DNA of 64,000 nucleotides, taken from assembly GCA_964422585.1 (NCBI GenBank), contig CAYRBH010000002.1, positions 13,428 through 77,427 of the forward strand, written 5' to 3'. This document shows positions 814 to 44,750 of the stretch, piece by piece; position 1 is the stretch's first letter; each line of letters opens with the position of its first letter. The position numbers and the translations under genes were made by a program. The DNA comes from an uncultured Gammaproteobacteria bacterium. Its GTDB lineage: Bacteria; Patescibacteriota; Patescibacteriia; UBA1558; 2-01-FULL-52-15. Under the pieces are notes generated by a model that was not told the origin of the DNA, ran no database searches, and saw only the letters and a program-made list of their open reading frames with translations.

Positions 814-1975
814 ACCTCGACTTACCTGGGTGAACTGTCTCCATATCTACCAACCGCCCTGGCAGCGCGAAGAAGTGGTACGATTAGTCACGAGAGAAAG
901 CTATGAGCTTATCATAGCGACTCTGAAAAAATTTCCTCATTGGAACCTAACTCTCAATATCTCAGGCACCCTACTCGATACCTTCGAGAAGCTTGGCTAT
1001 CAGACACTGCTGAAAGATATCGCTCTGCTGGTCAGACGAAAACAGATCGAGCTGACCGGTTCATCCCAGTATCATGCCTTCCTCCCCCAGCTGCCGGCGA
1101 GCGAGATAGTGCGGCAGATCGATCTCCAGGAGCAGACGCTCAAAAAATATTTCAAGAAGTATCGGCCAAAAGGATTTTTCGTTCCTGAACTTGCCTATAC
1201 CACACGTATCGGAAAGCTGCTGCGCGAGCGAGGCTATCACTGGATCATGCTTGACCCTATCAGCACTACGAGCAAGCCTGCTACCTCGACCCGTTACATT
1301 GAAAAAGCCACCGGACTTACCGTCGTCTTCAGGAATCGAGCGATTTCGAAAGGCTACCCGCCTGAATTGCTGTTCAAGTCTTTGAAAAAGAAGAGCGCTG
1401 CGGCTCGCACCGTTATTACCGCAACTGATGGCGAGCTCTATGGTCATTTCCATAAGGATTGGCAGGATCATCTGAAGCAGCTGCTTGAATCTGATACTAT
1501 CTCGACCGCTCGGGTGAGCGATTATATCGCGACCCTGGGAAAAAAAGAACTGATCAAACTACATGATGCCTCATGGGAAACAAAATCACATCAGCTGCAT
1601 GCCAAGAATCCCTTCAGTATCTGGTACAATAGACATAATCCCATACATCGAGACCTCTGGTCGCTGGCGCACTATGCGATACACTCGCTCAAGCATCATG
1701 TATCGGATCCGAACTATCGCTGGGCAAGGGAACATCTCGACCGCGGTCTCGCCTCTTGCGCCTGGTGGTGGGCGTCCGAGGTCAAAACATCGACATTCGG
1801 TTCGCTGGCCTGGAGTCCGGATGAGATAGAGCGTGGTGCCACCGAACTAATCAAAGCGGTCCGCTCCCTCACCACGATATCCTCTGCAAGCAAGATACGG
1901 GCTGAAAAACTATATAGCACCTTACTCGGACATATGTGGACTAAACATTGGAAATCCTATGGGGCGACAACATAA
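797..1975 (+). CDS. Glycoside hydrolase family 57-like alpha-glucan enzyme
   Basis: N-terminal LHIYQPP motif resembles the GH57 'HQP' signature. 392 aa, sits between glycogen synthase genes, and overlaps the upstream gene by 17 nt. Confidence 0.5.
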   Translation: MMPKSKPRLTWVNCLHIYQPPWQREEVVRLVTRESYELIIATLKKFPHWNLTLNISGTLLDTFEKLGYQTLLKDIALLVRRKQIELTGSSQYHAFLPQLPASEIVRQIDLQEQTLKKYFKKYRPKGFFVPELAYTTRIGKLLRERGYHWIMLDPISTTSKPATSTRYIEKATGLTVVFRNRAISKGYPPELLFKSLKKKSAAARTVITATDGELYGHFHKDWQDHLKQLLESDTISTARVSDYIATLGKKELIKLHDASWETKSHQLHAKNPFSIWYNRHNPIHRDLWSLAHYAIHSLKHHVSDPNYRWAREHLDRGLASCAWWWASEVKTSTFGSLAWSPDEIERGATELIKAVRSLTTISSASKIRAEKLYSTLLGHMWTKHWKSYGATT

Positions 1976-3053
1976 TATCGACAAGCTCATTGAGGCAAAT
2001 CCGGTCAATAGAGGGCTCGATTATACTTTTGTCGATCAACTGATGAGCGGCATTACCTTAGCTCATTTCCCAGAGTTCGCCTCGATTAGCAACCTGCGAC
2101 ATGTCAGCCACAAACGTCGCGTCGGCAAACATCATAGCACCTTCATCTATAGCTACTATATTTCCGGCATGACCAAAGACCGGACGCCGATACAGAAACA
2201 CCTAATCTACAGCTCGCACTCTGATGCGTCGCGACTCATCGCTTACAATAATATGCGACGCTTCGACGCTGCAGGCTTTAATGCTGATCATACCTATATG
2301 ACCATCGTGCCACTAGAGTTCGTGCCCGAAGTAAAAGCCCTTATCTATGAAGCGGCCCATGGCAAAACACTCTATGAGCACATGAAATCCCATACTGCGG
2401 CCGAACTCGAGCCCCTCCTGAAGCAAGTGGCTGCTTGGATACGGAAGTTCCATGCTTTTACCCTGCCAGCGAGTTCATTCGAAGCGCTGCCTCTCGCATC
2501 ATCAGCCAATATGAATTGGAAAGTCGACGAATTCCAGACCGAGGTGCAGAGAAAGAATGCGCAGCAAGGCGAAAAGTTGCGCTACTTCTCAGAGACCTTT
2601 TTCACACTTGAGAACAAAGTACATCAGAACATGACACCACAGCTGATTTATGGCGACCTGCACCCAGAGAATATCATCACCGAAACACTACACCCCGAGA
2701 CACTGACCCTGATCGATTTCACTGATGTCGCGCGCGGCGATCAAATGCGGGACATCGGGACCTTCCTTCAGCAAGTGCAATTCATGGGCTCACAATTCTA
2801 TGCGCAGCAAGACACTGAACATCTGAAAAAATTCTTCCTAGAACAGTATTTCCAGAAACCATTCGACTCGATCGATCAGGACCTTCTCGATCGCATTAAC
2901 CTCTACCAAGCGTGGAGTTCACTGCGAGGATTCGTGTACTTCTTCTTTCAGCCTGACTATCTCGAAAAATCCTATGGACTCCTCGAAGATGCCTGGCGCT
3001 ACCTCTACTTCGCGGGGCATAGCATGAGAACCCTGCACCTGAACTATACCTAG
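1959..3053 (+). CDS. Aminoglycoside/choline-kinase-family phosphotransferase (possible sugar kinase of the maltokinase type)
   Basis: Brenner-like motif YGDLHPENII and DFTD...D motif are typical of APH-fold kinases. Lies in the alpha-glucan gene neighbourhood. Confidence 0.45.
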   Translation: MGRQHNIDKLIEANPVNRGLDYTFVDQLMSGITLAHFPEFASISNLRHVSHKRRVGKHHSTFIYSYYISGMTKDRTPIQKHLIYSSHSDASRLIAYNNMRRFDAAGFNADHTYMTIVPLEFVPEVKALIYEAAHGKTLYEHMKSHTAAELEPLLKQVAAWIRKFHAFTLPASSFEALPLASSANMNWKVDEFQTEVQRKNAQQGEKLRYFSETFFTLENKVHQNMTPQLIYGDLHPENIITETLHPETLTLIDFTDVARGDQMRDIGTFLQQVQFMGSQFYAQQDTEHLKKFFLEQYFQKPFDSIDQDLLDRINLYQAWSSLRGFVYFFFQPDYLEKSYGLLEDAWRYLYFAGHSMRTLHLNYT

Positions 3054-3089
3054 TACATAGACGCTCCCATTCTGTGGTACAATGGATGT

Positions 3090-3956
3090 ATGCAAAAATC
3101 CATTGACCTCCAAATGCACTCCCATTACTCGGACGGCTCCAAGAGCCCGACCGAGCTTATTGATATCCTCGTGTCAAAAAAAATAGTCGTTGCCGCTCTG
3201 ACCGATCACAATACGATACATGGCCAGTATGAATTCCAGGCTGCCGCGAAGAAGAAGAATATCAAGACCATCAATGCCGTGGAGCTCTACATAGAGTACA
3301 AACAGCGCAAACTGCACCTCTTAGGTTACAATATTGACATCAATAACTCTGAGCTACATGATGAGCTACGTGAGACTCAGATCAGGCGCAAGAAGCTCAT
3401 CGAGGGACTGGTACCGAAACTCAAGCGCGTAGGGATCACCTTGAATATCAGCGAGCTATTCGCGCAGCCAGCGACCTATATCGGCATCGCGAACGTTGTC
3501 CGCACGATCGAACGTGATGAAAAAAATCGCCAGGCACTACAGAAAGCCCTGAAAAAGAAGCAGTATGACTTCTTCGAGGTCTATAATCGCTTCTTCTCGA
3601 AAAATGCTCCGTGTCACTTACCTGAAGTATCGCTACCAGCGAAAGAGGCCTTCATGCTTATCAAAAAAGCCGGAGGCACACCGATACTGTCGCATCCAGG
3701 CTGGCAACTCTCATTCCACGATGATCATGTGATCGCAGAGCTTACCAAGCTCGGCATGAAGGGAATCGAATGCTTCAGCTCACACCATAACTGGGATCAG
3801 ACCGCGCATTACCTAAGCCTCGCCCGACAGCAAAAGCTCATCATTACCGGCGGTTCTGACTATCACGGCGATTTGCCTGGTGACTTCATCATTGAGAATT
3901 ATCACGAGTATACCTCGCTGCCGTACGAAATCTACGAAAATATAAAAGTGTTTTAA
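3090..3956 (+). CDS. PHP-domain metal-dependent phosphoesterase (TrpH/YciV-like)
   Basis: N-terminal HSHYSDGS...LTDHNTIHG matches the PHP-domain histidine motifs. 288 aa. Confidence 0.6.
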   Translation: MQKSIDLQMHSHYSDGSKSPTELIDILVSKKIVVAALTDHNTIHGQYEFQAAAKKKNIKTINAVELYIEYKQRKLHLLGYNIDINNSELHDELRETQIRRKKLIEGLVPKLKRVGITLNISELFAQPATYIGIANVVRTIERDEKNRQALQKALKKKQYDFFEVYNRFFSKNAPCHLPEVSLPAKEAFMLIKKAGGTPILSHPGWQLSFHDDHVIAELTKLGMKGIECFSSHHNWDQTAHYLSLARQQKLIITGGSDYHGDLPGDFIIENYHEYTSLPYEIYENIKVF

Positions 3957-4064
3957 GATTCACGATTGACAGCAGGCTGACTCATGAACCACATGGGCCG
4001 ACTGCTTTTTAAAATGAAAAATATGCCTCGCGCTTATCATTTTTATGGTACTATATAAAGCAGT

Positions 4065-5516
4065 ATGCCAAGGAAAAAACTCTCTATCGTCTTTACCGCT
4101 GCTGAGTGCGCGCCTTTTGCCAAAGTCGGAGGACTTGGCGATGTCATAGGCTCACTACCGCAAGCGTTGGCTGAACGAGGTTGTACTGTAACGGTTATCA
4201 TACCCCTCTATGGGAGTATTGATCGTACAAGATACCGGTTAACAAAATTCGGCGCTCTTACGTTTGAACATAACAAACGCACGGAACGCTGTGTGGTCTG
4301 GAGAGCACAGCTCCGTGGCAACCCAGTCACGTACTTGTTCATCGAGCATCCTCTCTTCAAGGCAAAAGAAATATATCGAGCTGGCAGCGTTGTCACAAGC
4401 GGCATTGACCCTGATATTGATAAATTCGGATTCTATAGTAAGGCGGCTGTCGAAGCAATACAGCAACTGCCTGTCGCCGCCGATATCATCCACTGTCATG
4501 ATTGGCATGCAGGGCTCGTCCCGACTTTTGTCGATCAATTAGCGGTGACCAAAAACTACCCTTTCACGAAGACAGTCTACACCATCCATAATCTAGGCAA
4601 TCAGGGCATTACACCGCGCTCTGAGATCAGGAGGCTCACGCTAGCGCTGTCGGAGCCGGCAGTGCTAGAAGATTACTATGATCTGGATGAAGAAAAACTG
4701 AATCTCATGAAGATAGGCATCTTGACCGCTGATCGGATCTCTACCGTGAGCGAGACCTATGCGAAGGAAATACTTACACCAGAATACGGTGGCGGACTTG
4801 AATCATTCTTATCGCGGAGAAAAAAAGATCTCTCTGGTATCGTCAATGGCATCGATACGAAACTCTTTGACCCAGCGAAGGATGCCTTTCTCATAAAGAG
4901 ATACTCTCTGAAGACATGGAAACAGGGAAAGCAGAAGAACAAACAAGCAGTGCAGCGCAGCTTGGGTCTGCCGCGATCTGGCGCTCCGCTCTATGGATTA
5001 GTGAGCCGACTCGTTGCTCAAAAAGGCTTGGATATTCTAGTGCAATCACTCGAAACGTTTCTACGGAATGATGTTCAAGTGGCGATCTTGGGTACTGGTG
5101 AAAAAAAATTGGAGTTGCAGCTCGTCGAGCTCGCCAAGCGGTTCCCGGAGAAGCTGCATGCAACCATTGGTTTTGACCTGCGACAAGCGCAGCAAATCTA
5201 TGCTGGTTCTGACGTGTTCCTGATGCCATCACGTTTCGAGCCCTGCGGCCTGGGACAGCTCATTGCTATGCGCTACGGGACTCTTCCTCTAGTCAGAGCG
5301 ACCGGAGGGTTACAGGATACCGTGCAGCACCTGAGAACCGGGATCGTATTCAGTGAATATTCCGCCCAAAAATTATCAACGGCGCTTGAGCAAAGCTTAG
5401 CGCTGTATGGCAAGCCAAAATCTTGGTATACTATGGTAGAACGATGTATGAAGCAAGATTTCTCTTGGGCATCATCGGCGAAAAAATATATCGCACTCTA
5501 TAGAAGACTTATCTAG
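4065..5516 (+). CDS. glgA: Glycogen (starch) synthase
   Basis: KVGGLGDV motif at the N-terminus and C-terminal PSRFEPCGL...MRYG motifs. 483 aa. Confidence 0.85.
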   Translation: MPRKKLSIVFTAAECAPFAKVGGLGDVIGSLPQALAERGCTVTVIIPLYGSIDRTRYRLTKFGALTFEHNKRTERCVVWRAQLRGNPVTYLFIEHPLFKAKEIYRAGSVVTSGIDPDIDKFGFYSKAAVEAIQQLPVAADIIHCHDWHAGLVPTFVDQLAVTKNYPFTKTVYTIHNLGNQGITPRSEIRRLTLALSEPAVLEDYYDLDEEKLNLMKIGILTADRISTVSETYAKEILTPEYGGGLESFLSRRKKDLSGIVNGIDTKLFDPAKDAFLIKRYSLKTWKQGKQKNKQAVQRSLGLPRSGAPLYGLVSRLVAQKGLDILVQSLETFLRNDVQVAILGTGEKKLELQLVELAKRFPEKLHATIGFDLRQAQQIYAGSDVFLMPSRFEPCGLGQLIAMRYGTLPLVRATGGLQDTVQHLRTGIVFSEYSAQKLSTALEQSLALYGKPKSWYTMVERCMKQDFSWASSAKKYIALYRRLI

Positions 5517-5535
5517 CATTCTTTTTTCGAACACT

Positions 5536-6465
5536 ATGCTGAAAAAACCAGAACTCCGCAAAGACTATGTGCAGGAAAAGTATGTGATCATAGCGCCCTT
5601 GCGATCGAAGCGTCCTAATGTGTTCAAAAAGCCTCATATGGCGGTACGCGAACACTTATCGCTGCCGACCGTCTTTACTCCACAGTCGCTCAAGAAAGAG
5701 AAGGCCCTGCTCACTATCGGTCATGGTCTTAAATGGCAGATAAAGGTCTTGAAGAATAAGTACCCTATCGTTGACCCAAGCTACCCGAAGGCCTACGGCT
5801 ACCATGAGGTAGTGGTCGAGACTCCGGACCCGCGACCAGAACTGGAAGATCTTCCCATTCCTCATATCGCCAAAATTCTCGAGGTCTATGCCACGCGGAC
5901 CGAGGCGATCACTCGTGATCCTCGTATCAAGTATGTCCTGATCTTCAAAAATAATGGTGGTAATGCCGGCGCTTCGCTGCAGCATGCACATTCTCAGATC
6001 TTCGCCACCGAATTCCTGCCATCGCATCTGTTCGATAAATCACAAAAACAGCAGGAGTATAAGTTGAAAACCGGCCGCTGCGTGTACTGCGATGTCATCA
6101 AAAAGGAAAAAGACGGGCCACGCAGGATCTTCGTCGACAAGCATATCATCGCTTTCTGTCCCTATGCCTCACAGTATAACTATGAGGTTTGGATGATGCC
6201 TCGACGCCACATCGATAATATCACTGACCTGAATGAAGTGGAGCGCACTGATTGGGCCCGCATACTCAAAAAAGTTACTAAAAAAATCAGCAGGTTGAAC
6301 TTACCGTATAATTTCTATTTCCATCAAGTCGTGAAAGATGAAGACCAGCATCTCTACCTGAAGATCGTGCCCCGCGGCAGCGCGTGGGCGGGCGTCGAGA
6401 TAGGCTCAGGACTCATTATCAATCCGATACCACCAGAGGACGCTGCCAAGTATTATCGGCAATGA
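5536..6465 (+). CDS. Galactose-1-phosphate uridylyltransferase-family (HIT superfamily) nucleotidyltransferase
   Basis: HxHxQ active-site motif (LQHAHSQIF) and a CxxC zinc motif (CVYCD). 309 aa. Confidence 0.6.
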   Translation: MLKKPELRKDYVQEKYVIIAPLRSKRPNVFKKPHMAVREHLSLPTVFTPQSLKKEKALLTIGHGLKWQIKVLKNKYPIVDPSYPKAYGYHEVVVETPDPRPELEDLPIPHIAKILEVYATRTEAITRDPRIKYVLIFKNNGGNAGASLQHAHSQIFATEFLPSHLFDKSQKQQEYKLKTGRCVYCDVIKKEKDGPRRIFVDKHIIAFCPYASQYNYEVWMMPRRHIDNITDLNEVERTDWARILKKVTKKISRLNLPYNFYFHQVVKDEDQHLYLKIVPRGSAWAGVEIGSGLIINPIPPEDAAKYYRQ

Positions 6466-6466
6466 C

Positions 6467-7219
6467 ATGAAACTACGGGCATTCACGCTTATAGAGCTTG
6501 TCATAGTGATGACGATACTGATGGTCATAATAGCCATCGGCATCGTAAGCTATGATACTGCGATAGCAAAAACTGATATCACCCATGGCAAAAGTGATAT
6601 GGCTGAGATAGCCAAGGCTGTCCTCGTTGCACAATACAAAAGCGGCTTATCTCTACGGGATATGATGCACAATGCTACCGGCGGCGCAGACGGTTGCTAC
6701 ACCACACAAGGATGCTATAAATCCTACCGAACGCAAAATGGGTTATCACTTGATCTACGCAATATACCCAACACCGACCCTTGCTACACTCAGTGGGCTA
6801 CGGCATTACAGGCCATAAAAAATAATACCGGCGGACAGCTGTCCTATGATACGAATGCCTTGCAGCGTGATCCCTGGGGCAGTCCCTACATTTTGCGCAT
6901 TAACGATGGTTGCACAACCTATATCACCGACCGCAATCAATGTTCTGCTCCAACCTATACTTGCCTCCCTGGGCTCCCCTATCAAGCATGTTGTCAGAAC
7001 GACGGCCTTATTTCTGTCGGCCCTGATGGTCTTGAGGGTACGGCGGACGACTTTTCTTTTGGCACAACACCCCTCCCGCATATATCGGTAGGCTTTGATG
7101 GCGTCGCAAACAATGCTGACGACGATCTCGGTGGACTTATACCGCGAGCGTATACGGGTAAATGCGCCTTCAACCAAGACGCCAGCCATGGAGGAGCAGC
7201 CTACTGTGACGGAGACTAA
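6467..7219 (+). CDS. Type IV pilin / pseudopilin-like protein with a Cys-rich C-terminal domain
   Basis: N-terminus MKLRAFTLIELVIVMTIL is a class III prepilin-peptidase signal with conserved Glu5. The C-terminal ~180 aa contain about 11 Cys. Confidence 0.6.
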   Translation: MKLRAFTLIELVIVMTILMVIIAIGIVSYDTAIAKTDITHGKSDMAEIAKAVLVAQYKSGLSLRDMMHNATGGADGCYTTQGCYKSYRTQNGLSLDLRNIPNTDPCYTQWATALQAIKNNTGGQLSYDTNALQRDPWGSPYILRINDGCTTYITDRNQCSAPTYTCLPGLPYQACCQNDGLISVGPDGLEGTADDFSFGTTPLPHISVGFDGVANNADDDLGGLIPRAYTGKCAFNQDASHGGAAYCDGD

Positions 7220-7221: not shown

Positions 7222-8256
7222 TTACTGCTTCTGCTGCTGCGGGAAGAGCTTAACTACTTCCTGGTACACCAATCCTGAAACATCAGAAATAGTCGTTGCC
7301 ATCTGATCATAGTCGACTCCCTTCGTCATGACACATAAGAAATAAGGATGATCAGGATAGTATACGATGCCACAATCATGCAGCTCCCGATCCGTGACAG
7401 CGCCAGTACTCCCCGTCACAGTATGCTTACCGAATTTATGCGCGACGATCAGGGGCGCGCCAAGACCTTTCACGATACCGTCCGCGAAGGTGGCCTGCGT
7501 CAGTACATGCAATGCGCGTTGTGACATTTCTTTATCCAAATACGTCGCGTTATAGAGCACTCTGAAAAATGTTGAGTAGTTCTTCGCTGACATCTGATCC
7601 GGTTCGGTCGGATCTTGTCCGGTACCGAAAGGAACGCCTAGGTCGCTGTATACCTCCTTCAAAGAATTCGGGTCAATACTATTCGCGAGCAGATATAGTG
7701 CTACATTATCTGATTTTGTGATCATCTGCTCGATTAACTCCTCAATAGTATACTCTTTATTCTCAGTCAACAGATCCGGGGCGTCAAGATTGATCAATGA
7801 GCGCATAGCCGGAGTGATGGCATAGGTGACTTTTTTGGTAAGTATGTCAGGACTGGCCTCTGCCTCCTTATAGTAGGCTATCATGATTGGGACTTTCAAC
7901 AGGCTCGCTGGGGTATACTTTTCATTCTCATTCACCCCGACCCAGCGCCCGCTATTCATGGTGCGAAAATACACTGAAATCGAAGTAGCTTGGTTCGTGC
8001 TTACTTTCCGATCCACAAGGGCCTGGATGACCTTCTCAATAGGAGCGAACTCGGTGAATTCTTTCTGATCAGGGATATCACAACTCAGGAGCGGATTCAC
8101 CAAGTTATCATAGCCCTCTCTCTGTACTTGCATGCGTTCGTTTGCTGGGACGGTTGCTGGCAATGCGCTTCGCGCAGCCCAACCACCATAAAAGGAGGTC
8201 GCGAGGGCGGCAAGAACGAGTACAGAGAGTACCGCTCGGTTTCTGAGTATAGCCAT
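7222..8256 (-). CDS. Class A beta-lactamase-related serine hydrolase, membrane-anchored
   Basis: SxxK (ASLLK) and SDN (KSDNVA) motifs and a KxG-like element. N-terminal hydrophobic segment. Confidence 0.5.
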   Translation of the reverse strand: MAILRNRAVLSVLVLAALATSFYGGWAARSALPATVPANERMQVQREGYDNLVNPLLSCDIPDQKEFTEFAPIEKVIQALVDRKVSTNQATSISVYFRTMNSGRWVGVNENEKYTPASLLKVPIMIAYYKEAEASPDILTKKVTYAITPAMRSLINLDAPDLLTENKEYTIEELIEQMITKSDNVALYLLANSIDPNSLKEVYSDLGVPFGTGQDPTEPDQMSAKNYSTFFRVLYNATYLDKEMSQRALHVLTQATFADGIVKGLGAPLIVAHKFGKHTVTGSTGAVTDRELHDCGIVYYPDHPYFLCVMTKGVDYDQMATTISDVSGLVYQEVVKLFPQQQKQ

Positions 8257-9503
8257 TATGTGATCTTTACAAATTTCCTCTTGCCAACTTGCACAACATC
8301 ACCTTTTTGGAGAGCAATCATTACGTTAGGGTTACGAGTTAGCTGGTCCCCATTAATTCTGACTGCGCCCTGTTCAACCATACGACGAGCCTCAGACTTT
8401 GATGAGCACAGTTTGAGCTTAACAAGAATACTCAATATCCCCTCGTCCGTTAGTGTCGTGGGAACTTCTCTGATGCCCGTTGGGATTTGCTTCTTTGTAA
8501 ACTGCTTTACGAATTCGTACTCTGCTTGGATGGCCTCCTTTGCAGAGTGAAATCTCGTAACTATCATTCGAGCAAGCTCAGCTTTGGCATCACGTGGGTT
8601 CAGCTTGCCAAACTGCATCTGCTTCTGACGATCCTGAATGGCGGCCATCGGCATTGTGGTGATCAACTCTAATGCAGGCAGAATCATCGCATCGGTCCAT
8701 GACATAATTTTGCCGAACATTTCCTTGGGAGAATCAACAAGCGTCACCATATTCCCTTCTGTCTTCCCCATCTTCTTACCCGTTGCATCTTCCAGGAGCT
8801 TTGTGGCTATGACGAATTTTTCCTTATTTTTGTACTTCATCATTAGATCGCGACCGGTCAACATATTGAATGTCTGATCATTACCGCCTACTTCACCATC
8901 GACATTTATTGCAACTGAATCGTAGCCTTGCATCAGGGGATAGAGAAATTCGTGCATCAAGAGCGGTTTGCCTGATTTCATCCTTCTGTCGAATAGATCT
9001 CTCGCGAGCATTCGCTGTACGCTTTCTTTCGAAGCAAGCATCAATATATCCTCGAGTTTTAATTTCGAGAGCCAGGTGCTATTGAATTGGTACTCAGCCG
9101 CGTTCGGACCCGTGAATTTCAAAATAGTTGCTGCTTGTTTTTTGTAGTTCTTACAGTTGGCAAGGATTTCCTTCCTCGTAAGAATTTTCCGCGCTTCGGT
9201 CTTGTCCGGATCACCGGCAATTGCTGTAAAATCACCGATGAGAAGAATAACCTTGTGGCCAAGTGCCTGGAACTGGGCCAATTTCATAAGTGGAATAGCG
9301 TGCCCCAGGTGAAGCGCAGGCCCTGTCGGATCAATACCAAGGTACAAAGTCAGCTGCTTACCACTCTTCAACATCTTTTCCAGATAGTCGTGTGATGGAT
9401 ATATATTCTCGACACTTCGTGTCAGCAGCTCTTGTATCTTTTTTGGATTTGTATCAATCTTCATACTCCTTATAATTATAGCGCACCTTTGGTATAATGA
9501 CAT
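8256..9503 (-). CDS. tyrS: Tyrosine--tRNA ligase
   Basis: Class I HIGH variant (HLGH), KMSKS variant (KMGKT) and a C-terminal S4-like domain. 415 aa. Confidence 0.9.
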   Translation of the reverse strand: MSLYQRCAIIIRSMKIDTNPKKIQELLTRSVENIYPSHDYLEKMLKSGKQLTLYLGIDPTGPALHLGHAIPLMKLAQFQALGHKVILLIGDFTAIAGDPDKTEARKILTRKEILANCKNYKKQAATILKFTGPNAAEYQFNSTWLSKLKLEDILMLASKESVQRMLARDLFDRRMKSGKPLLMHEFLYPLMQGYDSVAINVDGEVGGNDQTFNMLTGRDLMMKYKNKEKFVIATKLLEDATGKKMGKTEGNMVTLVDSPKEMFGKIMSWTDAMILPALELITTMPMAAIQDRQKQMQFGKLNPRDAKAELARMIVTRFHSAKEAIQAEYEFVKQFTKKQIPTGIREVPTTLTDEGILSILVKLKLCSSKSEARRMVEQGAVRINGDQLTRNPNVMIALQKGDVVQVGKRKFVKIT

Positions 9504-12463
9504 CCTCTATGCCTATTCGTCAACTGAAACGAAAAGATGCTGAGGAGCCACGAAGCGCTTTTAGCACGCATAGTTTTACCAACGACAATACTATGAGCAC
9601 CGCCGACAGACGCAATGCTTCACGAAATACTCCAACCTCATCATCATGGACTACAAGCCCGCGAAGAGGAGGAACGCCAAAGAAACGCATACGCCGGCAG
9701 AAGACGCTCCTTGCGACATTCATTCGCTTGGGGTTGTTACTATTCCTGATCGGCGGAATTGGATTAGTGACTGTCTTTGCCTACTACTCGAAGGATTTGC
9801 CCGATCCGAATAAGATCATACAGCGCGATGTTGCTCAGAGCACGAAAATCTATGATCGTACCGGCACGGTATTGCTCTATGAGATACATGGAGCTGAGCG
9901 CAGGACCTCTATCGAGCTCTCTGACATACCGCAATATGCGATTAATGCGACTATCGCTATCGAAGATAAAAATTTCTTCAAGCATAGCGGTCTTTCATTC
10001 CCCAGTATCCTCAAAGCTATCGTCCTGGACGTCGCGAGCAAGATCGGCTTATACCATGGTATCGTTCCTGGCGGCTCAACCTTGACCCAGCAATTCATCA
10101 AGAACGCAGTACTCACAACCGAGAAAAGTTACTCCCGTAAAATTAAGGAGTTCGTGCTTGCCTATAGACTCGAGCAGAAATTCAGCAAAGAGCAGATACT
10201 CAAACTCTATTTCAATGAAATACCCTATGGCTCGACAGCGTATGGCATTGAGGCCGCCTCTCATATCTACTTCGACAAATCAGCGAAAGACCTGACCCTC
10301 GGCGAAGCCGCGATTCTCGCCGCATTGCCACAGGCCCCAAGCTACTACTCGCCTTATGGCGAGCATAAGGACGAGTTGATCGCGCGACAGCGTCTGGTCT
10401 TGAAACTCATGGTCGAGCAGGGTTATATCACCCAAGATCAGGCTCAGGCCGCTCGTGATGAAAAGATTGTCTTCAAGAGAAAACAGGAGGATATCAAGGC
10501 GCCGCATTTCGTGTTCATGGTGAAAGACGAATTGGCGCAGCGCTATGGAGAACGCCTCGTGGAGCAAGGCGGCCTGAAGATCATCACGACACTTGACTAT
10601 GATAAGCAAAAGATCGCCGAACAAACTATCAATGAGATAGGCGCTACCAATCTCGAAAAATACAAGGCGCAGAACGCGAGCCTGGTCACCATCGATGTGA
10701 ACACCGGGCAGGTGCTCGCGCTCGTAGGCTCGAGGGACTATTTCGATGACTCTATAGACGGGCAGGTCAATGTAGCGACAAGCCTCCGGCAGCCTGGCAG
10801 CTCCTTGAAGCCGATGATCTACTCTGAAGCATTCAATCAAGGCTACCGACCAGATACTATGATTTTCGATCTGCGGACAGCCTTCTCGAGCGACTACTCT
10901 CCTCAAGACTATGATGGCAAAGAGCGGGGCCCGATCTCGCTGCGCGATGCCTTACAAGGTTCGCTCAATATCCCTGCAGTTAAAATGCTCTATCTCATAG
11001 GCGTGCCGCGCGCCATCGAGCTCGCCCAGCAGCTTGGTTATACCTCACTCACCGATCCAAATCGCTACGGCCTATCACTAGTGCTCGGAGGTGGTGAAGT
11101 GAAGCTCATCGAGCATACGAACGCCTATGCGGCCTTCGCGCGCGAAGGTGTCTATAAACCCTATGCGGATGTACTGAGCGTTCAAGATGCTAATGGTAAC
11201 ACCTTAGAGCAATTCACTGATACTGAAGGACAGCGCGTGTTACCGCGAGAAGTCACCCGGCAGCTTTCAAATGTACTCTCAGACAATGATGCGCGCACGT
11301 TCATCTTCGGCGCGGGCAATCATCTCGTACTCGACGGCAGGCCGGTCGCGGCAAAAACCGGTACGACGAATGACTACAAGGATGCCTGGACCATGGGCTA
11401 CACCCCCTCCATAGTTACTGGCGTCTGGGTCGGTAATTCTGATAACACCTCCATGGGCCCGAAGGCTGACGGTTCTGTCGTGGCTGCTCCCATTTGGCAG
11501 AAGTATATGAATGCTATCCTCAAAGACACTCCTGTCGAACAATTCAAAGCGCCGGAGCCCTTGCCTGCGTGCACGAAACCTATGCTCTGCGGGACCTTAG
11601 GAAGCGAACGGGTTGTCAGGATTAATATGGATAATGGTAAACTTGCTGGCCCTGCGACACCGCCATCGAAAATCAAAGAAGTCACCTACAAAGAAGTGCA
11701 TGAGTTGCTGCAGTATGTAGACAAAACGAACCCAACCGGCCCTGAGCCAGCTGATCCCACTGCGGATCCACAATACAGCGCGTGGGAAGCGCCCGTACAG
11801 CAGTGGGCGCAAAAACAAGGATACCTCACTGATGTCCCACCGACCGAGATCGACACGACGTATAGCACCGCTGACCAACCATCGATCAACTGGACTTCGC
11901 TACAAGATGGCGCAACTATCACCTCGTTGCCTATCACTCTCAGCTCACAAGCTTCTGGGCCGCATGGCGTTGCAAAGGTGACCTATCTGTTGAACAATCA
12001 GATTATAGGCACGGCGACACAAGCTCCGTACACCTTTGCCTTCACGCCAAACACAACAGTACAAAATGGTACGTACACCTTAAGCGCCCGCGCGACTGAT
12101 AGTCTTGGCGATGAGCAACAAAACGATATTACGGTAACCATTAACCTGCCGCCTGACCCGAATGCCTGGTCAATTAACTGGATAGCGCCAGAACCGAACG
12201 CAACCTACGCGCTTGCGAATGTGCCAACAGAGCTACAGATAGGGATTACCAATCCACAGCGCATTAAAAAAATTGACTTCTACTATGCCAACGAAGGCGC
12301 GCCGCATTTCATTGGTTTCCAGAATGTCAGTGGCCAGACGCAACTAAATGAACCCTGGATAAAACCAGATTCGCCGGGGACCTATCAACTCTACCTTGTC
12401 GTGACTGATATACATAACCAGTCAATGACAGATCCTCTCATCTCTATTTCGGTCACCAATTGA
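9497..12463 (+). CDS. Bifunctional class A penicillin-binding protein (transglycosylase/transpeptidase) with long C-terminal Ig-like extension
   Basis: GT51 motifs EDKNFFKHSG, GGSTLTQQ and RKIKE. Transpeptidase motifs SSLKP, SLN and KTGTT. Single N-terminal TM segment. 988 aa. Confidence 0.9.
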   Translation: MTSSMPIRQLKRKDAEEPRSAFSTHSFTNDNTMSTADRRNASRNTPTSSSWTTSPRRGGTPKKRIRRQKTLLATFIRLGLLLFLIGGIGLVTVFAYYSKDLPDPNKIIQRDVAQSTKIYDRTGTVLLYEIHGAERRTSIELSDIPQYAINATIAIEDKNFFKHSGLSFPSILKAIVLDVASKIGLYHGIVPGGSTLTQQFIKNAVLTTEKSYSRKIKEFVLAYRLEQKFSKEQILKLYFNEIPYGSTAYGIEAASHIYFDKSAKDLTLGEAAILAALPQAPSYYSPYGEHKDELIARQRLVLKLMVEQGYITQDQAQAARDEKIVFKRKQEDIKAPHFVFMVKDELAQRYGERLVEQGGLKIITTLDYDKQKIAEQTINEIGATNLEKYKAQNASLVTIDVNTGQVLALVGSRDYFDDSIDGQVNVATSLRQPGSSLKPMIYSEAFNQGYRPDTMIFDLRTAFSSDYSPQDYDGKERGPISLRDALQGSLNIPAVKMLYLIGVPRAIELAQQLGYTSLTDPNRYGLSLVLGGGEVKLIEHTNAYAAFAREGVYKPYADVLSVQDANGNTLEQFTDTEGQRVLPREVTRQLSNVLSDNDARTFIFGAGNHLVLDGRPVAAKTGTTNDYKDAWTMGYTPSIVTGVWVGNSDNTSMGPKADGSVVAAPIWQKYMNAILKDTPVEQFKAPEPLPACTKPMLCGTLGSERVVRINMDNGKLAGPATPPSKIKEVTYKEVHELLQYVDKTNPTGPEPADPTADPQYSAWEAPVQQWAQKQGYLTDVPPTEIDTTYSTADQPSINWTSLQDGATITSLPITLSSQASGPHGVAKVTYLLNNQIIGTATQAPYTFAFTPNTTVQNGTYTLSARATDSLGDEQQNDITVTINLPPDPNAWSINWIAPEPNATYALANVPTELQIGITNPQRIKKIDFYYANEGAPHFIGFQNVSGQTQLNEPWIKPDSPGTYQLYLVVTDIHNQSMTDPLISISVTN

Positions 12464-12632
12464 CCGTCAGGTACTATTACTTGGTTATTGACAAGGATAC
12501 CGTACTGTTGTACCGTAGAGCGTTCTATGGTTAAATTGAATAAACGCACACACAGGCCTATTCCATAGTGGAATTTGCCCAGCGTGCACTCAACGTACCT
12601 TGACTTATAGGTTTAGGAAGGTGGTGATACCA

Positions 12633-13340
12633 GTGCGCCGATTCGTTTCTCTGTTTGTGACCGTGTTCGCTCTGTGCGCTCTCGAAGCGTACGCCGGAGA
12701 CCAGCCGAAGCCCCTCGTCATCCCTGACAACTTCTTCATGGCCTACGTCAAGCCGGACAACACCGTGGCCTTCGGGTTCTCGGTGCCGCCCGACGCAAAC
12801 CCCAACTTCGCTGAAGCAGACGCCAGTTGGTGGAACGTCGTCGCCAAGCACCGGGTCCTCATGGACACGAACGCCGACTACAAGGCGGCCTACTTCGCGA
12901 CAGCGAGCGATCCTGATCTCCAATCCACCGGCATTACGTTCAAAGCCTGGTCTACGGCATCGCAAGATGAAAAGGCCACGTTGCGGGCCACGTTGCGGCA
13001 GCGCGTCGCAGACGTACTCCAGAAACATGGTCTTCGAGACCAGCTCGCGAGCCTGCAGGCAGACAACCAGCAAGTCGCCCTCATGGCGATGCAGTTGAGC
13101 GGAGCGAAACGCACCGCTCTCCCCCTCGTCCGGTTCTGTCCGGGTGCCGAAGGCAACATCTCCGTCAATCACAACGACCCCGACTTCCCGAAGCTTGAGC
13201 AAGCGATGAAGACACCACGCTACGACGAGGCTCTCGTCGCTTTCAAGAACTTCGAAGCCGAACACCCCAACGCGTCGATCGACGACCGCACCGCTAAGCT
13301 CAACGAGCTCGTGCGGCCACTGCTGACCGCGTCCCAATAA
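12633..13340 (+). CDS. Secreted hypothetical protein (GC-rich, likely horizontally acquired)
   Basis: GTG start preceded by GGAAGGTGG RBS. Signal peptide (LFVTVFALCALEAYA|G). Coding GC is markedly higher than flanking genes. The ORF track extends to 12600. Confidence 0.5.
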   Translation: MRRFVSLFVTVFALCALEAYAGDQPKPLVIPDNFFMAYVKPDNTVAFGFSVPPDANPNFAEADASWWNVVAKHRVLMDTNADYKAAYFATASDPDLQSTGITFKAWSTASQDEKATLRATLRQRVADVLQKHGLRDQLASLQADNQQVALMAMQLSGAKRTALPLVRFCPGAEGNISVNHNDPDFPKLEQAMKTPRYDEALVAFKNFEAEHPNASIDDRTAKLNELVRPLLTASQ

Positions 13341-13385
13341 CCGACCTCTCCAGGAGGAGGGTCACTTCGAAAGAAGGAGTCTGGA

Positions 13386-14114
13386 ATGATGAAGAACAGA
13401 CCGTCTCTCGTCCTCGGCTTGATCGCGTTCGCCGCCATGACCCCCGCCTCGTTCGCGGCGCAGAAGTCCGCGTCACCCCCGGTCAGTCTGACCCACAACG
13501 GGAGACTGAACGCTCCGCTTACGCCGATGCAGAACGAGATCTCGATCTACGTGACCGACACCGGCCGGCTGATCAGCCCGCCACCCATCGACTCGGCGAC
13601 CAACCAGCCGACACTGGACCTCGAGAAGGTCGCGAAGCACGAAGCCACGCAGGTCTGGATCAACGACAACCTGGACCATCTGAACGCCGTCGTCGGCAGA
13701 TTCGCCGCCGAGGCAAGAACGGCCAAGGCATCCGACGTGACCGGATACATCAATACCGCCTTGCAGGCTCACCTCGCGCAGATCGGAGCAGGCCGCGAAA
13801 TCGACAGGATCAACGCGACCATGATCCACCAGCTGGCAACGCCGGCGCCAAGCCCGGTTTCGACCGTCGGCAACAACCCGACCAACGCATCCCTCGTCGG
13901 GAACGTCGGGAAGGGCCAGGAGATCGACCCCAACAAGTACGCGCAGCTGAACGGCAGCTGCGGTCCTCGGGGCACGTGCCTCACCGTGGTGGAGATCTGC
14001 ATCACCGACCCGACCGGGACGAGTTGCAGCGTCATCGACTGCGACACCGGTTGCCGTGGCTGTTGCGGCTACGGCCTCAAGATGGCGGCGGTCGACCCGC
14101 CGGCGGCTTTCTAG
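13386..14114 (+). CDS. Secreted hypothetical protein with Cys-rich C-terminal tail
   Basis: AGGAG RBS and signal peptide. About 10 Cys lie in the last ~50 aa (CGPRGTC...CSVIDCDTGCRGCCGYG). GC-rich. Confidence 0.5.
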   Translation: MMKNRPSLVLGLIAFAAMTPASFAAQKSASPPVSLTHNGRLNAPLTPMQNEISIYVTDTGRLISPPPIDSATNQPTLDLEKVAKHEATQVWINDNLDHLNAVVGRFAAEARTAKASDVTGYINTALQAHLAQIGAGREIDRINATMIHQLATPAPSPVSTVGNNPTNASLVGNVGKGQEIDPNKYAQLNGSCGPRGTCLTVVEICITDPTGTSCSVIDCDTGCRGCCGYGLKMAAVDPPAAF

Positions 14115-14161
14115 CCGTACCTTCCTTCCCACAACCAGCCCGCGCGCAAGCGCGGTCTTCA

Positions 14162-14201
14162 GGGCGCGGGGACCTCACGGTTCTCGCGCCCTCCTTTTTT
14201 T
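14162..14201 (+). terminator. Rho-independent terminator after the GC-rich two-gene block
   Basis: GGGCGCG...CGCGCCC stem followed by a T7 run. A GNRA-loop hairpin lies just upstream. Confidence 0.5.
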
Positions 14202-14290
14202 GGAGGCAGATATGCCTATCGTCCTTGCCAGAAGAATTCGGCTACGGCGCATCTCCACACGGGGGGGGTGCGCTTTTCTTTTACAAAAAT

Positions 14291-15001
14291 TTAGAGGCGC
14301 CAGGGCAAGAGAAGTGTATCGAGGATATTCGAGCGGCCGATCTTCGAAGCCCCGATCGTCCTATCTCGAAAGGTAATAGCGACCTCCTCAATCCGCGCAT
14401 GCGCTTTCACAGCTGCCCAGCTTGTTTCTATTTGAAAAGCATACCCATCTGATCGTGTAGCTGTTATACCAATGCGCTCAAGCAAAGAAGTTTTCCAGAT
14501 CTTATAGCCGCTGGTCGAGTCTTTAATATGATACTGCGGATCTTTGAAGCGAAGGATGGCGTTAATATATATGTTCGCTATACGGCTTACTAGCAAACGA
14601 AAGTATGACCAATGAGAAATGGAACCGCCTTTGACATAACGACTACCAATGACCAGCTCAGCGTCCTGCGCTTTTTCTAGCAGCCCCCGCAGGGCATGAG
14701 GGTCATGAGATCCATCAGCGTCCATTTGGACGACGATATCATATCCCCGCTCGAGCGCCCAGCGAAAACCATCACGATAGGCGCTTCCAAGCCCTTGTTT
14801 AGAGCCTCTCTGCACAAGATGTATCGACGGGTGCTGCGCGCACTGTTCCCGCATATACTCCCCCGTACCATCGAGGGACCCGTCATCAATGACGAGTATA
14901 TCCAAGGGCAGCCCCCTGAGCGCATCGATAAGGATCGGGAGTGCTCCGCGCTCATTATAGGTTGGTATCACTACCAGTGTTTTTGCGTCGAGCACAGCCA
15001 C
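14291..15001 (-). CDS. Family 2 glycosyltransferase (polyprenyl-phosphate sugar transferase-like)
   Basis: N-terminal VVIPTYNE...DDGSxDGT motifs of GT2 / Dpm1-like enzymes. Confidence 0.75.
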   Translation of the reverse strand: MAVLDAKTLVVIPTYNERGALPILIDALRGLPLDILVIDDGSLDGTGEYMREQCAQHPSIHLVQRGSKQGLGSAYRDGFRWALERGYDIVVQMDADGSHDPHALRGLLEKAQDAELVIGSRYVKGGSISHWSYFRLLVSRIANIYINAILRFKDPQYHIKDSTSGYKIWKTSLLERIGITATRSDGYAFQIETSWAAVKAHARIEEVAITFRDRTIGASKIGRSNILDTLLLPWRL

Positions 15002-16107
15002 TACTGTTTAATGGGCATGATGACATACACAAACCCATCCTCCTTCGGCGCAGTAAGTACGGCGGGCGTGGTTGGCTCATTGGTCCTTAGTGTCGCGCGG
15101 TCGCTTGAAATATGCGCGAGACCATCAAGTAAAAATTTATAGTTAAAAACTATATCAAGCTCCTGTTCTTTGACCAAACTTGGCACATTCGAAATGTTCT
15201 TGCCGAATGTACTGTTCTCAGCGTTGATGGCAATGTCTGAGAAGCGCTTGTCGAGAGAGATTCGTACGTCATTGATACCTTGCTTACAAAACAGAGAGGT
15301 TGTTTTGATCGCCTGCGCCATATCATATACCTTGAACTCCACGATATTCTTGAATGTGGTTGGGATTATTTGTTTATAGTCCGGATAGTCGCCGGTGATA
15401 ATGCGGGAAACTAGTTGTGTTTGGCCACATACAAAAAGTATCTGGGTATCATTGATGGTGATTGTTGTATTTTCCTCTTCCGAGAGCGGCAACACTCGAA
15501 CTAACTCCTGCAATGTCTTTGAGGGAATGATTATTGCTCGGGGATGTGGGGTTTTTGTTGCGAGCGAAACCTTTTTTTCAACGAGGCGATAGCCGTCTGT
15601 CGCCACAAATATACAGTGTTTGTCTTCAAGGATGATATACACACCAGTGAGTTCTGGCCGAGACTCGTCGTTTGACACCGCGAAAACAGTTTGATTAAGC
15701 GCCTCGATGAGTGTTGCTGTTGGCAGGGTGATTGTGGTTTTTGCCTCTACCTCTGGGATTACCGGAAAGTCGGATGATTCAAGGCCACGAATAGTTGTTT
15801 GGTGGTTCTCGCCGCGTAAGTGCAGTGTTTTGTCCACCAACTCAACCTCGACATTCTCTTTTTTCAATGTGTTAACAAATTCGGAGAGAAGCTTCGCTTG
15901 TACCGTAAAGTCTCCCTCAGACTCGATCTTACCACGCACCTTTGTTTTTATGCCTATCTCTAAGTTTGTTGAAACCAACAGTAAACCATCTTTTCTTGCC
16001 TGCAAAAGCACATTATTTAAAATGGGCAGGTTTGTGTTTTTATCACTTAATCGCGCGACAATATTTAATCCTCTGGAAAAATTTTCTTGTGTGCAGGTTA
16101 ATTTCAT
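15001..16107 (-). CDS. dnaN: DNA polymerase III beta sliding clamp
   Basis: 368 aa with a conserved N-terminal region (NLPILNNVLL). Sits directly downstream of dnaA. Confidence 0.85.
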   Translation of the reverse strand: MKLTCTQENFSRGLNIVARLSDKNTNLPILNNVLLQARKDGLLLVSTNLEIGIKTKVRGKIESEGDFTVQAKLLSEFVNTLKKENVEVELVDKTLHLRGENHQTTIRGLESSDFPVIPEVEAKTTITLPTATLIEALNQTVFAVSNDESRPELTGVYIILEDKHCIFVATDGYRLVEKKVSLATKTPHPRAIIIPSKTLQELVRVLPLSEEENTTITINDTQILFVCGQTQLVSRIITGDYPDYKQIIPTTFKNIVEFKVYDMAQAIKTTSLFCKQGINDVRISLDKRFSDIAINAENSTFGKNISNVPSLVKEQELDIVFNYKFLLDGLAHISSDRATLRTNEPTTPAVLTAPKEDGFVYVIMPIKQ

Positions 16108-40158: not shown

Positions 40159-40233
40159 GCGGGAGTAGTTCATCGGTAGAACGCTTCCTTGCCAAGGAAG
40201 AGGCGGCGGGTTCAATTCCCGTCTCCCGCTCCA
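40159..40233 (+). tRNA. tRNA-Gly (anticodon GCC), CCA encoded
   Basis: Manual cloverleaf: acceptor GCGGGAG/CTCCCGC, anticodon loop UUGCCAA, T-loop TTCAATT. Confidence 0.85.
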
Positions 40234-40315
40234 TCGAGTGAGAACTCGTCCAAGACACAACCCTGTACTAGGGTTGTTGTCGTTTATGAAAAGTATTGCT
40301 ACAGTAGTATCGCTT

Positions 40316-40399
40316 GCCCGGGTGGTGGAATGGTATACACGAAGGACTTAAAATCCTTTGGCGCAAGCCTTGCGGGTTCGAGTCCCGCCCCGGGTACCA
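40316..40399 (+). tRNA. tRNA-Leu (anticodon TAA), long variable arm, CCA encoded
   Basis: Acceptor GCCCGGG/CCCGGGT, anticodon loop CUUAAAA, variable arm ~14 nt, T-loop TTCGAGT. Confidence 0.85.
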
Positions 40400-41568: not shown

Positions 41569-44600
<3,032 letters not shown>

Positions 44601-44750
44601 TGTGTATTCCTCCTCAAGTCGTGAGATGTACGGTGGGGGTAAGTAGTTTCGTTCTGTCAAAGGACATGAAATCCCACTTAGGCTTTCTGTGGGATGCAGA
44701 GCTACCTTACGAAAAAATAGTGATAGGCGCAAGATCATTTTTTGTTCCAC

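Follow-up and report, generated by a model that had tools for sequence, protein, structure and literature searches.

The DNA analysed here, a stretch of 64,000 nucleotides from an uncultured member of the Patescibacteriota (positions 13,428 to 77,427 of contig CAYRBH010000002.1; hereafter the window), carries two tandem genes, which we call A and B, between the gene for PBP1A and a gene for a GT2-family glycosyltransferase. Taking the evidence together, we consider it probable that the two genes constitute a horizontally acquired operon of ~1.65 kb that encodes two exported partner proteins with a role in cell-cell interaction. The pair is compositionally foreign and exported, and its base composition and codon usage are atypical of the host. 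The operon would have been acquired into a variable gap between PBP1A and the convergent GT2-dnaN-dnaA genes, near the origin of replication, and would be transcribed from host-like upstream sequence up to a GC-rich terminator of its own. Outside the cell A and B may act together, A binding or otherwise handling its Cys-rich partner, possibly by thiol-disulfide chemistry of a free Cys residue, and the Cys-rich module of B being displayed on a flexible linker as the putative active ligand or warhead.

The GC content of A and B (0.607 and 0.645, respectively, against 0.51 for PBP1A, 0.513 for GT2 and 0.496 for the whole window) changes in a sharp step at both ends of the islet, and their GC content at third codon positions (GC3; 0.771 and 0.868) is the highest among the ~56 open reading frames (ORFs) of the window, the others falling between 0.35 and 0.73. 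A previous sequence-only reading of this DNA had proposed two tandem genes richer in GC than their flanks, each preceded by a ribosome-binding site and together followed by a strong terminator, and each of these elements was confirmed (Table 1); A and B are 45 bp apart. The relative synonymous codon usage (RSCU) of the pair correlates at r = 0.89-0.90 with that of genes from three high-GC loci carrying homologues of A or B (L005, L092 and L001) and at 0.34 with that of 29 host genes, which correlate at 0.3-0.8 among themselves and mostly at less than 0.5 with L005. On the carriers represented by long contigs (L001, L005, L092 and L093) the GC content is 0.63-0.69 and that of the pair is equal to or slightly below that of its surroundings; adjacent A and B at near-native GC are found in L001, L092, L009/L010, L096 and L003. 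In the three Patescibacterial copies the cassette stands out from its background: 0.61-0.645 against 0.49 in the window, 0.58-0.61 against 0.47 in the sister species L006, and 0.61-0.64 against 0.47 in L094. Across all carriers the GC content of the cassette stays within 0.55-0.66, whatever that of the host (0.47-0.69).

The third of these copies belongs to a Patescibacterium as well: it shares the gene order of L030 around RNase III (rnc) and NusB, which are 58% and 54% identical to their L030 counterparts, and for SMC the identity to L013 is 47%. The L094 pair, which is only ~25% identical to that of the window, lies between smc and a HAD gene and not in the PBP1A gap, and thus represents an independent acquisition. 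Its B gene, too, is followed by GC-rich hairpins and a T-run, much like the terminator in the window. None of A, B and the GT2 gene of the window was found in 80 PBP1A neighbourhoods from other Patescibacteria species (as delimited by GTDB). The proposal of the sequence-only reading that the genes were acquired as a pair of foreign composition is thus borne out by the donor-like RSCU, by the 80 related loci that lack the pair and by the GC-rich copy at another locus in L094. The same two-gene cassette, for which it had recommended a search, turned up as adjacent genes on high-GC contigs and in L006 and L094, with differing neighbourhoods, and the copy in the close relative L006, where a homologue of uniform composition would have pointed to vertical inheritance, is a GC-rich islet too. 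As far as can be judged from sequence comparison, the foreign origin of the pair is well supported.

The site that received the genes is a variable one. The closest relatives of the window PBP1A come from metagenome-assembled genomes labelled Patescibacteria or Magasanikbacteria, with an identity of 55-58% for L011, 68-78% for L078 (partial match) and 42-50% for many others, which identifies the window as Patescibacterial. In 26 Patescibacteria relatives PBP1A and dnaN are convergent neighbours separated by 9-4161 bp, and because the gap is shorter than 450 bp in 15 of the 26, we take adjacency of the two genes as the ancestral state, with the gap gathering extra genes. In the window the gap is occupied by A, B and GT2, and in L011 it is filled by unrelated small genes. 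Across many Patescibacteria its gene content differs between lineages, so that the gap seems to be a spot beside the origin where accessory genes have inserted repeatedly. The GT2 gene beside the pair shares only 58% identity with its L006 counterpart, and in the other relatives the gap does not contain it. The cumulative GC skew of the window reaches a minimum at ~14-15.5 kb and a second low at ~20-21.5 kb, with dnaA/dnaN and rnpA-yidD-yidC nearby. Since the minimum at 14-15.5 kb lies beside dnaA/dnaN, the islet is probably located within a few kb of the replication origin. The placement of the pair next to cell-wall genes, which the sequence-only reading took for a functional clue, loses this meaning in view of the variable gap in the relatives and of the unrelated contexts in L094, L001 and L092, and a link to cell-wall function is not supported.

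The low-GC, host-like intergenic block that follows the PBP1A stop codon probably supplies the operon with its promoter and 5' leader. The promoter role is a putative one, a consensus scan having called no sigma-70 promoter in the block, and Rfam gave nothing in 12400-14400, even at E<=1. The inverted repeat that had been pointed out upstream of A is indeed present and lies inside the part of the block conserved in L006, but on its own it does not rise above chance: the window contains 35 perfect inverted repeats with 6-bp arms and a 3-nt loop, and 182 when loops of 3-8 nt are admitted. A search for direct or terminal inverted repeats flanking the islet gave nothing convincing, the repeats D7 and D11 (10-11 nt) being at chance level for a 2-kb region, and no paralogue of A or B exists elsewhere in the window.

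In L006 the pair occupies the same site as in the window, within the gene order tyrS-PBP1A-A-B-GT2-dnaN-dnaA. Between the two species identity is 75% for TyrS, 80% for PBP1A, 82% for DnaN, 90% for DnaA and 58% for GT2, and falls to 35-36% for A and 38-42% for B; correspondingly, the nonsynonymous divergence (dN) is 0.62-0.65 for A and B and 0.13-0.18 for PBP1A, dnaN and tyrS. A and B evolve 2-5 times faster than their neighbours. A similar relation holds among the high-GC donors, in which the A proteins have 48% identity and their adjacent regulators 72%. Close homologues give a ratio of nonsynonymous to synonymous divergence (dN/dS) of 0.15-0.21, which is not raised in the Cys module of B; both genes are functional and under purifying selection. 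A recent strain-specific insertion is ruled out, since the site is common to L006 and the flanking proteins of the two species are only 75-90% identical.

Two histories may account for this arrangement. The first, which comes not far short of an even chance, is a single insertion in the common ancestor of the window species and L006 followed by vertical descent, GC3 being held high by another force; selection on synonymous sites or mRNA structure and biased repair are the candidates. In its favour, the upstream block is ~75% identical in L006, including the element TTGTAC-17-TGnTTnAAT and most of the inverted repeat, and the hairpin beside the GT2 stop is found at the same position. The B proteins of the two species share an 8-Cys framework, C-5-C-6-C-8/10-C-4-C-3-C-2-CC, and an insertion of 7-9 residues in the N-terminal domain, neither of which occurs in other members of the family, as well as a linker insertion containing GxxGKG. 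Neighbour-joining trees place the window and L006 copies together (bootstrap 77% for B and 42% for A), and the rapid divergence has its counterpart in the donors, where A and B likewise evolve 2-5 times faster than their neighbours. Against a single old insertion speaks the persistence of the donor-like composition. Fourfold-degenerate sites of conserved residues in the flanks are near saturation (identity 0.355), and the signal left in the GC or AT state of such sites amounts to ~9% over the whole path, or ~30% per lineage. With a host GC content at fourfold sites (GC4) of ~0.56, a cassette imported before the split with a GC4 of 1.0 would now be expected at ~0.69-0.71 at most, by a rough estimate from 789 flank sites and 91 cassette sites, whereas the observed GC3 is 0.77 for A and 0.87 for B in the window and 0.74-0.77 in L006. 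The neighbouring GT2 gene, on the other hand, tracks its host, with a GC3 of 0.52 in the window vs 0.39 in L006.

Alternatively, the site may be ancestral or a hot spot whose content was imported or replaced later and separately in each lineage, from related high-GC donors that are possibly the host bacteria of these epibionts, via DNA uptake. We regard this as a credible scenario to which less than an even chance should be given. It would explain the un-ameliorated GC3 (0.73-0.87) and the donor-like codon usage of all three Patescibacterial copies, and it agrees with the constancy of the cassette GC in hosts of very different composition. The window B is closer to the B of L001/L002 (46-48%) than to that of L006 (40%), the window A is 39% identical to the A of L001 vs 36% to that of L006, and L094, with the pair at a different locus, adds no fewer than one independent acquisition to the count. 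This scenario, however, needs two hits inside the same ~60-bp junction zone, and no donor with the 8-Cys framework exists among the 12 B clusters. The DNA identity within the family is too low for ordinary homologous replacement, and in each of the three Patescibacterial copies A and B have an evenly high GC3 over their whole length, revealing no mosaic structure.

Protein A starts with MRR-FVSLFVTVFALCAL-EAYA/GD and protein B with MMKNR-PSLVLGLIAFAAM-TPASFA/AQ (the slash marks the predicted cleavage point), which gives signal peptides of approximately 21 and 24 residues, respectively. Export was judged heuristically, from a basic n-region, a hydrophobic h-region 8-15 residues long, small amino acids at -3/-1 and the lack of a further transmembrane segment; by this check the signal peptides claimed by the sequence-only reading are there, both N-termini having K/R residues, a hydrophobic core and an AYA/G or SFA/A site. 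The maximal Kyte-Doolittle value over 10 residues in the signal cores of A and B is 2.7-2.8. The same n/h/c pattern, with no hydrophobic segment later in the protein, recurs throughout the 11 A and 10 B sequences, and past residue 35 the maximal Kyte-Doolittle value over 19 residues is <=1.35 in all 21 family members. These patterns show A and B as predicted exported proteins with Sec-type signal peptides and no further membrane segments.

The mature A protein (~210 aa) has a mainly helical predicted fold, and the motifs IPDxFF, GWWN(A/V)xAK, DPDLxxTGxT and (F/Y)CPG are conserved in its family. C169, which belongs to the FCPG motif, is a conserved unpaired Cys that is kept in every member covering the region, and in the window protein it is the sole Cys of the mature chain. 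A second pair of Cys residues (in TCP... and WWNACAK) is found in six members and missing in five, always both or neither, as one would expect if an exported protein carried a disulfide between them. The possibility that A is a lipoprotein was rejected: the lipobox L-[AS]-[GA]-C is lacking, the window A having FALC with Leu at -1, and the Cys is missing in homologues. A papain-like protease was likewise rejected, the only indication being one single-member Pfam match with E = 0.02; there is no conserved His, and in the model the Cys is not at a helix N-terminus. Inside gene A, at 12974-12997, there is a perfect 12-nt tandem duplication (GGCCACGTTGCG x2, repeat D5), which gives the peptide ATLRATLR.

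Protein B consists of the signal peptide (~1-24), an N-terminal beta plus four-helix domain (~50-148), a linker (~149-190), an 8-Cys module (192-227) and a 15-residue tail. The AlphaFold2 (AF2) model is confident for residues 50-148, where it has a small sheet and four helices, and this N-terminal domain, with its conserved motifs NGRLA..., SGKLISP, WEATQVW, Y.N..LQ.HL and EI.RI.ATM.H, is conserved to the same degree as the Cys module. The linker, a low-complexity Pro/Ser/Thr/Asn sequence, is highly variable in length in the family, the one in the window being the longest. The sequence-only reading described a C-terminal tail with 10 Cys residues; B has eight (at 192, 198, 205, 214, 219, 223, 226 and 227), spaced C-5-C-6-C-8-C-4-C-3-C-2-CC and followed by GYG. 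The Cys-rich module itself exists, but it is not at the very end of B, the twelve residues LKMAAVDPPAAF coming after CCGYG. In the family such modules begin with CGPxG, end with CC(G/M/W/D)(Y/F) and are 36-45 residues long, and in 10 of 10 B members the Cys count of the tail is even (8, 10 or 12). Six of the ten have both the second Cys and the one that precedes the final CC, and the other four have neither. Because the Cys residues are even in number and lost in pairs, disulfides are favoured over metal thiolates, and the module is likely disulfide-bonded and compact; the even number, the conserved framework and the co-variation of Cys pairs are those of knottin-like domains. A C-terminal sorting signal in B was considered and rejected, as there is no signature motif with a transmembrane helix and a basic tail: LPXTG, PEP-CTERM, MYXO-CTERM and GlyGly-CTERM signals are all lacking in B, which ends ...CCGYGLKMAAVDPPAAF, and in the family the 4-26 residues after the CC pair are variable and not hydrophobic.

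Both proteins belong to new and very rare families, for which no relative with a known function or fold could be detected. A word-indexed search of 5.8 billion clusters returned for B the window protein and two others, and for A the window protein only. Locus L001 (GC 0.65-0.69), the carrier of one of the B matches, has a 237-aa homologue of A just upstream of B (39% identity, E = 1e-54), and a profile made from these two A sequences retrieved eight A-family clusters; for B, an exhaustive HMMER profile search of 1.84 billion representatives yielded 12 proteins at E<=0.001. A scan of JGI metagenomes added one more A locus, L093. No family in Pfam-A, NCBIfam, PHROGs or PADLOC scored above threshold for A, B or their homologues; for the window proteins there were no Pfam families at E<=1, and across the members only scattered single-member matches (E>=0.014), none of them common to members. 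PDB searches with the sequence profiles of both family alignments gave no match, and neither did PDB fold searches. The two families are not paralogous to each other (profile-profile probability 0.4%). A tblastn search of 72,556 plasmids with A and B gave no match, and no A was found in viral contigs, the B alignment being too variable for a pattern. A pattern scan for A over 185,579 GTDB species representative genomes found none, with a pattern that would miss divergent members such as that of L094. In the literature on Patescibacteria with cysteine-rich secreted proteins acquired by horizontal gene transfer, nothing relevant was found.

Among the carriers, A and B are adjacent and 11-45 bp apart in L001, L003, L006, L009/L010, L092, L094, L096 and the window. 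Their divergence between the window and L006 runs in parallel (identity 36% for A and 38-42% for B), showing two genes that are inherited, transferred and diverging as a unit. The contexts of the pair differ: smc and a HAD gene in L094, a regulator with XRE and tetratricopeptide repeat (TPR) domains and aconitase in L001, integrase fragments and small unknown genes in L092; in L005 a STAS-domain gene lies upstream of A. No enzyme, transporter or protease is consistently near the pair among the carriers. Decay of the genes is seen in L007, where an insertion sequence with an rve transposase (1040-2626) cuts A at its 3' end, in L093, where the A gene (900-1631) has an in-frame stop at codon 58, and in L002 (1-877), where only the last ~21 codons of A are left upstream of an intact B. 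In L005 and L093, A has no B beside it. In L005 a 71-aa exported peptide with 6 Cys residues (10839-11054) lies directly downstream of A, and in L093 a 223-aa exported protein with 16 Cys residues (51-722, minus strand) is encoded just upstream, on the opposite strand. Because an exported neighbour with an even number of Cys residues is present where B is missing, the role of A seems tied to an exported Cys-rich partner.

Which process the pair serves can be stated with low confidence. We suggest an interaction with other cells, that is, attachment to or antagonism of host or neighbour bacteria, because of the fast divergence, rarity and patchy cross-phylum distribution of the two families, the debris of mobile elements around them and their repeated capture by epibionts with reduced genomes. 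A bolder version, which we find rather unlikely, is that A and B form a mobile host-interaction module that has been repeatedly captured by ultra-small epibiotic Patescibacteria from high-GC bacteria, possibly their own hosts, so that the epibiont secretes a disulfide-knot protein of the host type and its partner as mimicry or as a weapon; the repeated capture is suggested by the presence of the pair at no fewer than two independent loci in three genomes. If this were true, the presence of donor codon usage at a site older than a speciation with saturated divergence would mean either that host DNA continues to be re-imported or to replace the cassette, or that some unknown force keeps GC3 high.

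It is also possible, though in our estimate unlikely, that the cell secretes B as a bacteriocin-like or toxin pro-protein whose mature part is the Cys module, and that A is an exported immunity protein, chaperone or maturation factor. The layout of B (signal, domain, linker, Cys module), the strict coupling of A to B or to other exported proteins with even Cys numbers, the fast evolution and patchy distribution, and the integrase fragments of L092 and the insertion sequence that cuts A in L007 would all fit such a system. Domains of toxins, bacteriocins, immunity proteins, proteases or ABC exporters are, however, absent from the pair and its neighbours in every context, the dN/dS values of 0.15-0.21 show no excess in the Cys module, and a monoderm cell has no periplasm to hold a soluble immunity protein. 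The resemblance of the tail to toxins, bacteriocins or adhesin tips, suggested by the sequence-only reading, found no match in any family library or fold search.

A metal-binding (metallothionein-like) or redox role of the tail, with the pair handling extracellular metal, is improbable. Cys makes up 21-27% of the ~38-45 residues that lie between the first Cys and the GYG-type motif, these included, and CC, CxC and CDCD motifs are present, but the strictly even number and paired loss of Cys fit disulfides better, B is exported, and no metal-transport or resistance genes are nearby. In addition, the residue after the final CC pair is aromatic or hydrophobic in 10 of 10 members (Y in eight, F in one), which suggests a packed fold; metallothionein-like traits (absence of aromatics, reduced thiolates, a usually cytoplasmic location) are apparently not those of B. 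Still less probable is that A and B are native Patescibacterial genes of odd composition with a cell-wall role tied to PBP1A and GT2. The pair adjoins these genes in two species, its upstream region is conserved and other genes of the window are GC-rich too; yet it is missing from the 80 related PBP1A loci, occurs elsewhere in unrelated contexts and has codon usage matching that of high-GC contigs, and the above pattern scan for A found nothing in species genomes. Finally, a chimeric assembly or contamination from a high-GC organism, which the sharp composition steps might suggest, is very unlikely, as the NCBI contig and a Logan assembly have the same junctions, near-identical A and B proteins (falling in the same 90%-identity clusters) are also recorded from a 91-kb contig, and in L006, which was obtained from another run, a diverged copy is found between the same flanking genes, behind the conserved host-like promoter block.

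Several points weigh against an acquired operon of two exported interaction partners. No integrase, transposase, tRNA or flanking direct repeat accompanies the islet in the window, integrase fragments and an insertion sequence being confined to the surroundings of donor copies. GC content is in itself a weaker indicator in this genome, which is heterogeneous: purA, guaB, the sigma-70 gene, purD and pyrF of the window are GC-rich as well. The direction of transfer, from high-GC bacteria, was inferred from composition only, and the timing of the import (an old single insertion, re-import or replacement after the split, or a force holding GC3 high) is subject to the conflict between the shared site and the un-ameliorated GC3. 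The export of A and B depends on heuristic signal-peptide calls, the AF2 model of the B tail has a pLDDT of 26-40, so that the fold of the module is not established, and the lack of any homology or fold match leaves no functional handle.

The general kind of element, an islet acquired by horizontal gene transfer that encodes an exported Cys-rich protein, is familiar. The closest known counterparts are small acquired genomic islets, composition islands without mobility genes, and they include genes that members of the candidate phyla radiation (CPR)/Patescibacteria acquired across phyla. Like such islets, A and B show a sharp step in GC, GC3 and codon usage, are missing from relatives, have homologues of native composition in distant high-GC bacteria and are inserted between convergent genes at a variable spot. 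Unlike them, the pair has no integrase, tRNA or direct repeats, retains donor-like GC3 at a site shared with a species of saturated synonymous divergence and was captured a second time, independently, by another Patescibacterium. Precursors of the knottin, defensin and conotoxin types and disulfide-rich bacteriocins combine a signal peptide and a pro- or carrier domain with a mini-domain rich in disulfides. B has the same tripartite layout, 8-12 Cys residues in ~38-45 residues, even parity and paired loss, but it differs in having no sequence or fold match, no processing site, and no protease, modification enzyme or dedicated exporter nearby; its N-terminal domain, moreover, is as conserved as the Cys module, and it has an obligatory helical partner gene, A. 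Genes that would indicate a bacteriocin cluster or one for ribosomally synthesized and post-translationally modified peptides (a modification enzyme, a leader protease/ABC exporter, membrane immunity) are absent from the window, L001, L005, L006, L092 and L094.

Envelope-acting effectors can have exported partners, periplasmic immunity proteins or chaperones, that are encoded beside them. A is similar to such partners in being exported, located beside B, co-diverging with it and also found with other Cys-rich partners, and dissimilar in belonging to no known immunity or chaperone family and having no fold match; the effector activity of B is putative. Some resemblance also exists to RNPP-type systems, in which an XRE helix-turn-helix (HTH) and TPR regulator is paired with a secreted peptide. 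In L001 (614-1807, minus strand) and L009/L010 (in L009, 285-1478, minus strand) a divergent 397-aa regulator with HTH_31/HTH_3 and TPR domains lies right upstream of A, the two proteins being 72% identical to each other, and in this lineage it may control the pair. The regulator is, however, confined to one donor lineage and absent in the window, L006, L094, L092, L005 and L093; the A and B products, at 210-240 aa, are not short pro-peptides, and no Opp-type importer is nearby. Less usual than the kind of element itself are the independent capture of the pair by different Patescibacteria, the obligatory coupling of A to Cys-rich partners and the donor-like codon usage across a deep species split.

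A large share of bacterial diversity belongs to the Patescibacteria, which live attached to other bacteria, and to our knowledge very few molecules that mediate their contact with hosts have been described. A and B would be a concrete and cloneable candidate for a host-interaction factor, combining as they do rare families, repeated capture, and purifying selection with fast divergence. The cassette may also mark links between epibionts and hosts, through near-identical copies in co-occurring high-GC genomes, and the contrast between a shared old site and un-ameliorated codon usage poses a small puzzle concerning gene flow or selection at synonymous sites in reduced genomes. Should the pair be a passenger without a role, the finding would shrink to an ordinary islet of horizontal gene transfer.

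Table 1. Features of the A-B islet and of its neighbourhood (positions in the window)
Feature	Position	Strand	Remarks
PBP1A	9497..12463	+	upstream of A; Transgly, Transpeptidase and Big_7 domains
Host-like low-GC intergenic block	12464..12575	+	3' of PBP1A stop; putative promoter and 5' leader of operon
TTGACA	12488-12493	+	within intergenic block
Promoter-like TTGTAC-17 nt-TGgTTAAAT	12508-12536	+	layout kept in L006
Inverted repeat ATTCCAtagTGGAAT	12560-12574	+	6-bp arms, 3-nt loop
Left junction zone	12576..12632	+	alignment with L006 decays into indels; holds Shine-Dalgarno-like AGGAAGGTGGTGA
Shine-Dalgarno-like AGGAAGGTGGTGA	12615-12627	+	before gene A
Gene A	12633..13340	+	GTG start, 235 aa
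Shine-Dalgarno-like AAGGAG	13374-13379	+	before gene B
Gene B	13386..14114	+	242 aa
Cys-rich module of B	13959..14066	+	residues 192-227
Intrinsic terminator	14161..14201	+	stem 14161-14192, 14 pairs (10 G-C), 4-nt loop, T-run
Second hairpin and T-run	14246..14283		adjoins GT2 stop; host sequence right of islet
GT2 glycosyltransferase (Dpm1/Ppm1-like)	14291..15001	-	directly downstream of islet, convergent
dnaN	15001..16107	-	same side as GT2
dnaA	16357..17733	-	same side as GT2

Further GC-rich blocks are present in the window at 41569-44828, 45846-48133 and 50295-54608 (GC 0.53-0.60, GC3 0.59-0.73). They lie just past two tRNA genes (40159-40396) and encode purA (adenylosuccinate synthetase), guaB (IMPDH and CBS), a ParB-like protein, a 489-aa sigma-70 protein, purD (GARS), pyrF (orotidine monophosphate decarboxylase) and proteins of unknown function. 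For six such genes pooled (purA, guaB, sigma-70, purD, pyrF and one unknown), the correlation of codon usage is r = 0.845 with the high-GC contig L005 and 0.70 with host genes, and the nucleotide-synthesis genes among them are possibly foreign. Ribosomal RNA was rejected as the source of these blocks, as Rfam gives only three tRNAs in the window. A second GC-rich islet is also found in L006, at 3000-4200 (GC 0.58-0.62 vs 0.42-0.47), where it encodes a 358-aa protein without a Pfam match and has no equivalent in the window.

A membrane glycosyltransferase of the PMT_2 family is encoded at 29327-31039 (plus strand), 15 kb from the pair, and it is pure speculation that this enzyme and GT2 could glycosylate exported proteins, the Pro/Ser/Thr/Asn linker of B being a plausible substrate. 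At 55584-62498 there are four consecutive ORFs on the same strand, of 532, 540 and 550 aa (the largest three) and 298 aa, with no Pfam match at E<=1e-5. At the other end of the window, a glycogen/sugar-metabolism cluster (91-7219) comprises GT1, GH57, an APH-like kinase, a PHP-domain protein, a GT5 starch/glycogen synthase and a GalT-like protein, and is followed at 7222-8256 by a class-A-like protein of the beta-lactamase family.

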